From IMG/VR virus record IMGVR_UViG_2690316156_000014: DNA of 11,285 nt. The stretch is one strand, 5' to 3'. This document shows, piece after piece, positions 9,001-11,285 of the stretch. The stretch comes from a virus (Duplodnaviria > Heunggongvirae > Uroviricota > Caudoviricetes). Every line of letters starts with the position of its first letter. Within the stretch, counting starts at the first letter, position 1. The position numbers were made by a program.

Positions 9001-11285
9001 CACCGATCCGCAGCGAGAGCATATAGCCAGACGGCGGGAGATATGCCTTGAGAATGCGAAGCGTCCACCAAAGAAACGTGAAACATTTTGCGAACTTCAT
9101 GATGCGGTAAACAAGACTGTCGACGATATGGGAATCAGACGGGATCGGCGACATTACGGGTTATGGAAATAACAGCCAGGTAAATTGGTGAATATACGGC
9201 AGGCTGCAATCAGAGCCGAACATAGCGGCCTCCGTCACCATTATCAGACAGTAGCGGTAGTCCTTCCATCACAGCAAAATGCTACCCACTTCACAGCCCC
9301 TTAGAAGCCTCTTCAATGGGGTGAAAAATCCCTGAAAAAATGCGCAAAAAACTGCGCAAATCGATCATAAAACCGATCACAAAATCGATCACAAAACCGA
9401 TCATGCTGACCACCAGCACAAAGCCAGATATGACAGGGCTTGCAGGGGGATAGACCACCGGAAAAAGTGCGCAAAAAATTCAAAAAAAGTGCGCAAAACG
9501 AAACGCAACAGCCGCGCAAAACGAAACCGATACGTGATGATCGAAAAAGTGCGCAAAAATGGACTTTTTTACAGGGCAGAAACGGGAGTACGGGTTAACA
9601 TTCCTGGCATAACCGCAACTCACAGGGGGGGACCGATGAACGATCGATCACCAACGGAGATAATTCACGGGATTATCGAAGAGCAGGAGGAACGCGAGTT
9701 AACCCTTATGATTGCCGAGCAGATAGAGCGCCAGCGCAAACAGGAGGCCACGCAGTTGGTTATTAACACCACCGCCGGAAATTATGCGCGTGTTGTTGCT
9801 GAGGTGATGCGCCGTGATGGTATCGAACTGAACGGGCAGGACTGTCTGGTTATCCGAACAAGGGTGCTTGATATGCTGGCAGCAAGACAAAAACGGGAGC
9901 AACGCCAGAGCGCGGCCCCGTACCAGTGGAAGACGCCGGAGCGGTTGCGGCGGTAGTGTCAGCATTATTTGTGAGTCACTAATAGTGACTCGCAACAGAG
10001 TGACAGATAGTAACCCCGTTCAACCGTTACGGTAGTAACTGGTTGATATTGTTCCAGAGTGCAAATTTGCACTCTGGCGCTGTAACTTACTGACCTTAAA
10101 GCAAAGCGCAAAATTGCGCTGGCTACATGTCTCACATCTGAGGTATGAACTACGAGATTTTCGCAGTTTAATAACTGACCTGGTGGAAATAGCAAACGCC
10201 AAATTGCGTTGGCTGACAGAATGTAAATTTACATTCTGGCCTTACCCGCTGATATTTCAGCAAACCTCAATTTTGAGTTGAGCAAATCCACCAGCCGTAA
10301 AACCCTGATTTGTACATCCCCGATATCGGGGTATGTAAACCATCCAGACCGGACCAACCAGCCATGATTTTTACATCCCTCGCAATCGAGTGATGTATTT
10401 GGCTGGTGGACCTTGCAGCAATCGGCATAAGTCATAGCACAACCTTAAACACATCACAGGAGGCGTAATACGTGCGCGATATTCAACTGGTGCTTGAACG
10501 CTGGGGAGCATGGGCGGCAAATAATCATGAGGATGTGACCTGGTCGCCCATTGCCTCTGGATTTAAGGGGCTTATTCCGCCAAAGGTAACGTCACGTCCG
10601 CAGTGCTGCGACGATGATGCGATGATTATATGCGGGTGTATAGCTCGCCTTTACCGGAACAACCGCGATCTGCATGACTTGCTGGTGGATTACTACGTGC
10701 TGGGGAAAACGTTTATGGCGCTGGCGCATAAACATGAATGCTCTGACATGCTCATCGGAAAGCGGCTACAGAAAGCGGAAGGTGTTGTTGAAGGCATGTT
10801 GATGATGCTGGATGTAAAGCTGGAGATGGATCGGTATGTTGAGCGCGAATCAGTGACGGCATAACGCGCATAAAAAAACCGCAGTCATGAGGAAACTGCG
10901 GTGGAGAAATACGGCTTGCCAATCAATCATGAAAAACGTAATCGCCTGATAATTATGCCACGAACAACGAACAAGCCGGACACCGCGCCAGTAAAAACCA
11001 CAGATTCGTGGTTTTTCTCCATCTCGGCTAAGAACGCCACGGGGATTAATCCGTCGTGCTGGTGTAATCAGTCGGCAGCATGACGAACAGGCCGATCAGT
11101 CGGACACCACCAGCTTCATAGCGGAGGACCGGAAAAAATCCGCTGAGTATTTGCCCTGGTAGTCACCATATCGGCGGTACACGTGAAAAAATCGTGTACA
11201 CAAGGGTGTACACAATAAAAATCGTCATTATATAAACCCCAGCAATTACGCGACCTTGATGCACATACTCAATGAACAGATTCAT

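Follow-up and report, generated by a model that had tools for sequence, protein, structure and literature searches.

The linkers of bacterial interspersed mosaic element 1 (BIME-1) carry sites for integration host factor (IHF), and repetitive extragenic palindromes (REPs) are found at the 3' ends of transcription units (PMC3333891). The REP325/naRNA4 system comprises six repeats of palindromic units that are transcribed and act with HU (PMC4550694). These systems are compared here with a repeat array at positions 9957 to 10471 of the 11,285-nucleotide sequence of IMG/VR virus record IMGVR_UViG_2690316156_000014 (Caudoviricetes), the whole of which is referred to as the window. The window is an essentially complete satellite-type integrative element, P4-like and of a Q-carrying type, and the array lies immediately ahead of its Q-family antiterminator gene. 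An earlier note on this sequence had singled out positions 10287 to 10410, where two paralogous hairpins inside a 10-bp closing helix were read as one compound RNA element in the leader of Q. The best-supported description is that the two hairpins are the last two, noncanonical modules of the mosaic array, bracketed by two Chi sites. A riboregulator of Q, if real, would be a new control point for late gene expression, and the evidence does not support one. What remains is a modular repeat array of undescribed function, carried at their distal ends by a large family of Escherichia coli phage satellites, which includes model phage-inducible chromosomal islands (PICIs).

Like BIME-1, RIB, and RIP elements, the array is extragenic, sits at the 3' end of a transcription unit, and is a mosaic of palindromes with linkers matching the IHF consensus; in both, copy number and order vary between strains, and the repeats are cotranscribed with the upstream gene, as is probable here (PMC3333891). 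The two differ in that REPs alternate in inverted orientation and are dispersed in hundreds of copies, whereas the units of the array are tandem, co-oriented, and confined to one place per genome, and in that REPs follow a consensus whereas the palindromes of the array vary in sequence. No match with three or fewer mismatches to a 34-nt REP consensus was found, and no RAYT/TnpA-like gene was identified among the open reading frames (ORFs) scanned. With REP325/naRNA4 (PMC4550694), the array shares the form of a tandem cluster of hairpin-forming repeats that is tied to a nucleoid protein and could act both as DNA and as RNA; the sequences are unrelated, and the nucleoid protein there is HU whereas the motif here is that of IHF. 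Type III toxin-antitoxin (ToxI-like) arrays likewise consist of tandem short structured repeats beside a small gene, but the units of the present array are heterogeneous and follow a gene instead of preceding a toxin, and an adjoining endoribonuclease toxin is absent. On inspection, the features of the array fit neither integron attC sites, nor CRISPR arrays, nor ToxI-like arrays.

The repeat array and its modules

The tract at 9957-10471 (515 nt; + strand) is noncoding and lies between a gene of the phrog_1561 family (9636-9956, + strand; PHROG match, E = 2.7e-26) and the Q-family antiterminator gene (10472-10864, + strand; Pfam PF06530, E = 4e-51). About twelve hairpins could be drawn in it by eye, and when folded as RNA it gave z scores against shuffles of -8.6 on the + strand and -10.1 on the - strand. 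No conserved ORF was found in the tract in related loci, and coding potential was rejected as an explanation (a - strand ORF annotated in locus L001 is broken in the window).

The tract proved to be module-homologous to arrays in 80+ loci, and a phrog_1561 gene end followed by an array was found in 86 loci. In these, the gene end (...PERLRR and stop) leads straight into a mosaic of modules, with the stop codon overlapping the first head in related elements. The canonical module is about 48 nt long and begins with a head, TAAC-NNN-YTGAT-W-YTT, which is constant in orientation and is followed by a palindrome of variable sequence. After the head come an outer C-G/G-C clamp, a purine-rich 3-by-3 internal loop, and a stem of 5 to 7 bp that differs in sequence from unit to unit; the center of the stem is A/T rich, and its top often reads CAA-W(1-3)-TTG. 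Up to eight units occur in tandem per array.

Arrays were found in PICIs, in capsid-forming PICIs (cf-PICIs), and in the present P4-like type of satellite, most of them in elements without a Q gene. In the examined PICI and cf-PICI loci the array follows the last ORF; here only Q follows it. The array is present in well-studied kinds of island: in the EcCICFT073-like PICI of E. coli Nissle 1917 it stands after the last ORF, with no Q, and in the EcCIEDL933-like cf-PICI of O157:H7 seven units stand between the stop codon of the last ORF and a terminator-like hairpin, again with no Q. Array sequence matched 987 of 5,426 complete E. coli genomes (about 18%), at a median of one location each; the 50,697 records of the phage collection gave no match. 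Only 3 of the 987 matching genomes covered at least 80% of one array; the arrays are therefore highly mosaic. Neither searches with sequence strings nor term searches of the accessible parts of the PICI literature (PMC6739421, PMC6092414, and the cf-PICI preprint) returned a description of the array.

When a covariance model (R1) built from 20 canonical units, all taken from other loci, was run on the window, it detected four units there, each of them on the + strand and within 10036-10290. Unit 1 (10036-10079; 27.8 bits, E = 1.8e-6) has the head TAACTGGTTGATA, which matches the strict IHF consensus, and a perfect 24-bp palindrome at 10054-10077. Unit 2 (10083-10128; 24.0 bits, E = 1.9e-5) has a degenerate head, TAACTTACTGACC, and the hairpin AGCGCAAAATTGCGCT at 10105-10120. 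Two noncanonical modules follow on the + strand at 10126-10168 (CATGTCTCA CATC TGAGGTATG, then AACTACGAGATTTTCGCAGTT) and recur in other arrays; the first forms a hairpin at 10126-10147 with two G·U pairs on the + strand. Unit 3 (10190-10221; 15.2 bits, E = 0.005) is partial and contains the hairpin AGCAAACGCCAAATTGCGTTGGCT at 10191-10214, and the perfect palindrome CAGAATGTAAATTTACATTCTG lies at 10217-10238. Unit 4 (10242-10290; 29.4 bits, E = 6.4e-7) scored best, and its tail enters the left arm of the reported helix. Beyond it come the two modules with the reported hairpins, both noncanonical and on the + strand: at 10298-10337 the head TAAAACCCTGATT, a relaxed IHF-consensus match directly 5' of hairpin 1, and then hairpin 1 itself; at 10364-10397 a degenerate head, ATGATTTTT, followed by hairpin 2. 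Paralogues of hairpin 2 (TACATCCCTCAC-NNNN-GAGG) were found in arrays without Q (L045, L064, L219, and others) and at 10124-10147 in the window.

Related arrays pass straight from ...CGGCGGTAA to CTGGTTGATATT. In the window, and in this element only, a 78-nt piece (9957-10034) stands between the gene end and the first head; it is flanked by near-duplicate ...CGGTAG motifs and has a hairpin of its own (9969-9995). At the corresponding place L002 has a MazF toxin gene (2284-3000) and L047 has about 270 nt (3531-3802), and in both the gene-end motif is repeated after the extra DNA. Insertions thus seem to be tolerated where the phrog_1561 gene end meets the first head.

Chi sites and the leader of the Q gene

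The features from which the compound element had been drawn are present in the sequence. The decamers TCCACCAGCC (10287-10296) and GGCTGGTGGA (10401-10410) are exact reverse complements of each other, and between them lie the paralogous hairpins 1 (TACATCCCCGATATCGGGGTATGTA, 10313-10337) and 2 (TACATCCCTCGCAATCGAGTGATGTA, 10372-10397), separated by 34 nt (10338-10371) and with predicted loops AUAU and CAAU. The motifs GATTTG and GATTTT ahead of the hairpins belong to an 18-nt direct repeat with 89% identity. When 10280-10415 was folded as + strand RNA, the proposed compound shape was obtained at -46.5 kcal/mol (z = -5.2), a value that none of 200 shuffles equaled; for the - strand the energy was -62.9 kcal/mol (z = -6.8).

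Chi acts on DNA via RecBCD and not as an RNA helix. Both arms of the closing helix contain the exact Chi octamer GCTGGTGG, in opposite orientations, at 10288-10295 on the - strand (inside the left arm) and at 10402-10409 on the + strand (inside the right arm). Chi is the commonest octamer of the window and outnumbers the iterons of the probable origin, with 14 copies (1.24 per kb), 8 on the + strand (670, 3788, 4360, 6891, 7733, 8458, 10402, and 10681) and 6 on the - strand (2019, 6208, 8106, 9410, 10288, and 11107). The decamer GGCTGGTGGA itself has a second copy at 7732-7741. Among dinucleotide shuffles of the 515-nt tract, about 5% contained a perfect 10-mer inverted repeat within 150 nt. 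When 8 + and 6 - copies of Chi were placed randomly in 11.3 kb, an opposed pair no more than 150 nt apart arose with P = 0.73, and one in the same order as here with P = 0.47. An opposed pair is thus expected at this density, so that only the two extra flanking base pairs of the helix are left unexplained. What was read as a 10-bp "closing helix" is a pair of Chi sites that face opposite ways in a Chi-saturated element, and while the hairpins exceed chance, the helix does not once its arms are recognized as Chi. An inverted repeat built of Chi sites can therefore mimic a long-range RNA helix.

Chi density was 1.75 per kb in arrays, compared with 0.89 per kb in related islands and 0.30 per kb in unrelated enterobacterial prophage loci. 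The 14 sites of the window showed no orientation bias. This richness may protect a satellite that lacks Gam from RecBCD. Beyond the array, a composite motif, ...CCCACCAGCCTGATTAAC-N-TTAACCGGAAAAAAA-N-CCGGTA...CGWTATGGGGATCCCCATATCG, combines a Chi site with a GATC-centered palindrome; it was seen on both sides of the array in L120 (5650-5740 and 6130-6250) and in L219 (7590-7670).

Conservation of the reported pairing was assessed in orthologues from E. coli genomes and metagenomes, among which only six distinct variants were found. Four of the six retain the two arms as well as the two hairpins. The helix did not behave as a conserved pairing: only 72.7% of it was paired across the six variants, 7 of the 11 pairs departed only through unpaired cells, L171 carries two left-arm changes that are both uncompensated, and in the L046/L174 lineage the left arm is mutated and the right arm wholly missing. 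Hairpin 1 is invariant in all orthologues and is therefore uninformative on whether pairing is conserved. In hairpin 2, a single G-C pair is exchanged for A-U, and three variants have A·C intermediates. The covariation that the earlier note had read from the two hairpins was thus borne out for the canonical units of the wider family, in which stems change and pairing is kept, although orthologues of the two hairpins themselves give almost no evidence of it.

The Q gene has a GTG start codon and a Shine-Dalgarno sequence, AGGAGG, at 10458-10463, which is unsequestered in the predicted folds. A device dedicated to the leader of Q was not borne out, since the array also occurs in satellites without Q and blastn matched the leader in none of 40 Q-gene loci, all from other genomes and most from other genera; the nine upstream regions read among these loci were coding sequence. 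An attenuator had been proposed, and a terminator scan of 9400-11285 found no + strand hairpin followed by a U-run in 9957-10471, where the three terminator-like sites are all on the - strand. No promoter-like site was found between the array and Q, the single match lying inside the array, and Q is therefore probably cotranscribed through the array. The 3' arm of hairpin 2 (GTGATGTATTT, 10390-10400) is 91% complementary to AAACACATCAC (10447-10457), which ends one base before the Shine-Dalgarno sequence of Q; this pairing is a possible alternative and is absent from the minimum-energy folds.

These observations bear on the model of the earlier note, in which the helix and two hairpins form one compound Q-leader RNA element that works by attenuation, by processing, or as a small RNA. 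The model draws on a predicted fold far more stable than shuffles, on the retention of arms and hairpins in four of six variants, and on the capacity of 10390-10400 to pair next to the Shine-Dalgarno sequence. It is nevertheless very unlikely: the arms are Chi sites whose pairing is expected by chance, the helix carries changes without compensation and has lost its right arm in one lineage, a U-run terminator is absent, the Shine-Dalgarno sequence is left free, other Q genes lack the element, and the Q-type lineage L046/L174 has a different leader. The reported element is not supported as a self-contained riboregulator of Q.

The boxB of lambda has a 5-bp stem and a GNRA-like pentaloop, and the put sites of HK022 are two stem-loops about one unpaired nucleotide apart, directly downstream of a promoter. 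With both the array shares hairpins in transcripts leading into or out of antitermination genes and the succession of a linear motif and a hairpin. Antitermination sites of this kind, whose nascent-RNA hairpins would recruit the N protein of a helper phage or act directly on RNA polymerase, would account for the order within each unit, where a conserved linear motif precedes a short hairpin as boxA precedes boxB, and for the B-type head ...CCUUAAAGCAA before a 5- to 6-bp stem, which by eye is loosely similar to lambda nut. The nut-like site that the earlier note had suggested was not found, however: no boxA (YGCTCTTWA) with one or no mismatch occurs in 9957-10471, and two-mismatch matches occur at chance frequency (108 in the whole window against 90 expected). 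Nor are the loops GNRA-like pentaloops. The put architecture was not seen either, with the hairpins 34 nt apart instead of adjacent and the sole upstream promoter-like site inside the array. Up to eight tandem units are unlike any nut or put site, and the array has no general linkage to Q. Such sites are hardly a credible explanation of the array.

DNA-level and RNA-level readings of the array

The array is best described as a BIME-1/RIB/RIP-like but satellite-specific mosaic of IHF-type heads and short palindromes. The mechanism tentatively favored here, with less than even confidence, is a mainly DNA-level nucleoprotein role with RNA hairpins that are incidental or auxiliary. Built of shuffled modules that begin at or just after the phrog_1561 stop codon, the array would be a nucleoprotein tract, bent by IHF and prone to cruciforms, at the far end of the late operon. 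Being cotranscribed with the upstream operon, it would also form stem-loops in the mRNA, and these could buffer the upstream message, and here the Q cistron too, against exonucleases and Rho.

Several counts argue for the DNA level. Among 82 unique hairpins, 39 are palindromic right to the center, against about 28% expected by our own estimate; such center-perfect palindromes would be unneeded under selection on RNA. No strand-specific signal of the RNA-level action proposed in the earlier note was seen, G·T and A·C oppositions occurring equally often (12 to 11 within canonical units, 90 to 73 over the variants). The head conforms to a DNA-binding consensus and is variable where IHF tolerates any base, and Chi is twice as dense in arrays as in the islands, themselves already rich in Chi. 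The head is the reverse complement of the IHF consensus WATCARNNNNTTR, given in PMC8942017 and PMC10380432. Across 12.6 kb of arrays, 67 matches to this consensus were counted, all on one strand, a density of 5.3 per kb against a background of 0.094 per kb per strand; part of the enrichment comes from the way the loci were collected, many having been fetched by a pattern containing one head, and subtraction of one site per array leaves about 3 per kb. In the window tract the consensus is matched strictly at 10036 and in relaxed form at 10298.

This partial origin of the IHF enrichment weighs against the DNA-level reading, as do the following points. The IHF sites of the heads are putative, being matches to a consensus. 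The palindromes lack the REP consensus, the units are tandem and co-oriented and do not alternate, and the family is confined to satellites and is not dispersed. In many units, purine-purine oppositions (AAA opposite AAG) lie between the outer C-G/G-C clamp and the inner stem; loops of this kind are nonpalindromic and would therefore suit an RNA motif better. An early small count favored G·T over A·C by 13 to 5, which the larger counts did not confirm. Hairpins 1 and 2 score nothing with model R1, apart from a - strand fragment at E = 4.5, and they are provisionally assigned to the family by where they lie, by their head-like TGATTT motif, and by the paralogous modules found in other places.

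A possible, if rather unlikely, alternative is that the whole array functions as RNA, either as a structured 3' untranslated region or intercistronic spacer that blocks 3'-5' exonucleases and Rho loading, stabilizing the late-operon mRNA and allowing read-through into Q, or as the source of small RNAs released by processing, perhaps at the AU-rich GAUAUUUU within each head. Consistent with this, the array always lies on the coding strand directly after a stop codon, its stems covary, its purine-purine internal loops are conserved, and its probable cotranscription with Q follows from the lack of a promoter-like site between them. The hairpin at 10126-10147 differs from a perfect version in L001 by two transitions, both of which give G·U on the + strand. 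In several elements the array stands ahead of a terminator-like element of A-run, hairpin, and T-run; a regular expression for this element found it in only 8 of 65 arrays, and it is therefore not claimed as general. The present element also encodes its own ProQ/FinO-domain protein (8170-8616; Pfam E = 1.4e-24). These points are set against the missing overall asymmetry of G·U and A·C, the excess of center-perfect palindromes, loops that are A/U rich and not stable tetraloops, and the fit of the head to a DNA-binding consensus. The Rfam database has no match to the array, with nothing above 20 bits in 9900-10520 against gathering thresholds of 40 to 83 bits, and tRNA, tmRNA, and known Rfam families were rejected for the region. 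Homologues of the ProQ/FinO gene were detected in only three other array-bearing loci (L167, L175, and L176), many of the examined loci being incomplete, and a link to this gene was rejected as a general explanation on the same count.

Alternatively, the repeats may have no function for the element, the palindromes arising and becoming perfect through template-switch (quasipalindrome) mutation, being reshuffled when conserved heads recombine, and persisting as neutral or selfish sequence. The extreme mosaicism (3 of 987 genomes with at least 80% of one array), the over-representation of perfect palindromes, and the extra DNA at the junction of gene end and first head (78 nt here and longer in L002 and L047) are in line with this, as are many decayed copies, with 338 single-sided mismatches across variants against 41 compensated pairs. 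We consider it improbable, however. Position and orientation are constant across three satellite lineages that differ in gene content, and head positions are conserved. Of 98 unique units, 67% have a stem of 5 bp or more after the head, compared with 8.8% of shuffles, so that hairpins are 7.6 times commoner than in shuffles. Covariation among the 20 canonical units of other loci (0.304) exceeds both controls, namely, shuffles (0.135; 0 of 500 reach the observed value) and slid partners (at most 0.157).

The array, in which oriented IHF-type heads alternate with covarying palindromes and Chi is enriched, might also be a cis-acting element specific to satellites and so far undescribed, on which the life cycle of PICIs, cf-PICIs, and P4-like elements depends, acting as an IHF nucleoprotein complex in replication, packaging, or protection from RecBCD or as a processed multihairpin RNA that acts on the helper; this is considered unlikely. 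Should IHF binding or RNA processing of the array be real, the array could be relevant to satellite replication, packaging, RecBCD resistance, and interference with the helper.

Known cis-acting sites were rejected as identities for the array. A replication origin was rejected as its identity, P4-type TGTTCACC iterons being clustered elsewhere (7226-7446). For a lambda-type cos/cosB site, no cosN (GGGCGGCGACCT) with two or fewer mismatches was found in the window. In the Nissle PICI, exact copies of cosN flank a terS/rpp-like gene and lie at least 350 nt from the array. These are the two lambda cosN sequences of L168, at 11245-11256 (+ strand) and 12112-12123 (- strand), which stand in opposite orientation around a gene annotated as terminase small subunit and probably encoding an Rpp homologue; the pair agrees with the published cos1 and cos2 of EcCICFT073. 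An attP arm is unlikely: the Nissle array is about 200 to 500 bp from the putative att region, taken to be a 16-bp repeat (12951-12966) that has a counterpart on the int side, and here Q follows the array.

Gene content and neighboring features

The gene upstream of the array belongs to a family with 694 homologues, mostly hypothetical proteins of E. coli, and its product ends here in ...YQWKTPERLRR. It could not be recognized as a DNA-binding protein; the structural model is a helical hairpin of two long helices (pLDDT 79) without a fold match (best, E = 1.2), and the protein has no matches in PDB, Pfam, or NCBIfam.

Downstream, a hairpin at 10872-10902 directly follows the stop codon of Q and, with an A-run ahead of it, would be a terminator for the - strand only. 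About 90 nt past it, a terminator-like element of A-run, hairpin, and T-run (10993-11016) could terminate in both directions and by eye resembles the element after the array in some satellites without Q (L044, L139, and L219).

The satellite begins with an integrase gene (1-1323), followed by genes for an AlpA-like regulator (2307-2582) and an AntA-domain protein (2650-3498). A mechanically called ORF of 392 amino acids (3485-4663), with an Ash domain in its C-terminal part, contains Rfam matches to an isrK-like RNA (4220-4299; 52 bits, just above threshold) and to a C4-type antisense RNA (4348-4435; 81 bits), as well as a subthreshold match to the C4 target a1/b1, all of them within 4207-4435; this region looks like an RNA immunity module of the P1/P4 type. 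A DUF4222 gene (5102-5395) and a gene for a D5-type primase-helicase (5392-7212) come next. Just 3' of the latter, the type I P4 iteron TGTTCACC is present in nine copies in both orientations (7226-7446), and this cluster is the probable origin of replication. Genes for a single-stranded DNA-binding protein (7704-8153) and the ProQ/FinO-domain protein follow, and two PerC genes (8600-9172) precede the phrog_1561-family gene.

The Q protein is 78 to 83% identical to Q proteins of other enterobacterial genomes and is found here in a P4-like satellite without structural or lysis genes. By analogy with the action of P4 delta on P2, a satellite Q could switch on the late operon of a helper prophage in trans. 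Where the element is integrated, Q could cause transcription to run on into neighboring genes, hsdR in the case of L001.

Metagenome contig L176 (ERZ1034876 NODE_1165) is a circular permutation of the window at 100% identity, with a 10-nt terminal overlap. The assembly thus represents the element as a circle of about 11.43 kb, which was excised or present in tandem. Relative to this circle the window is short by only about 143 nt, between Q and int, and the order of genes in the circle places Q as the last gene of the element, before int.

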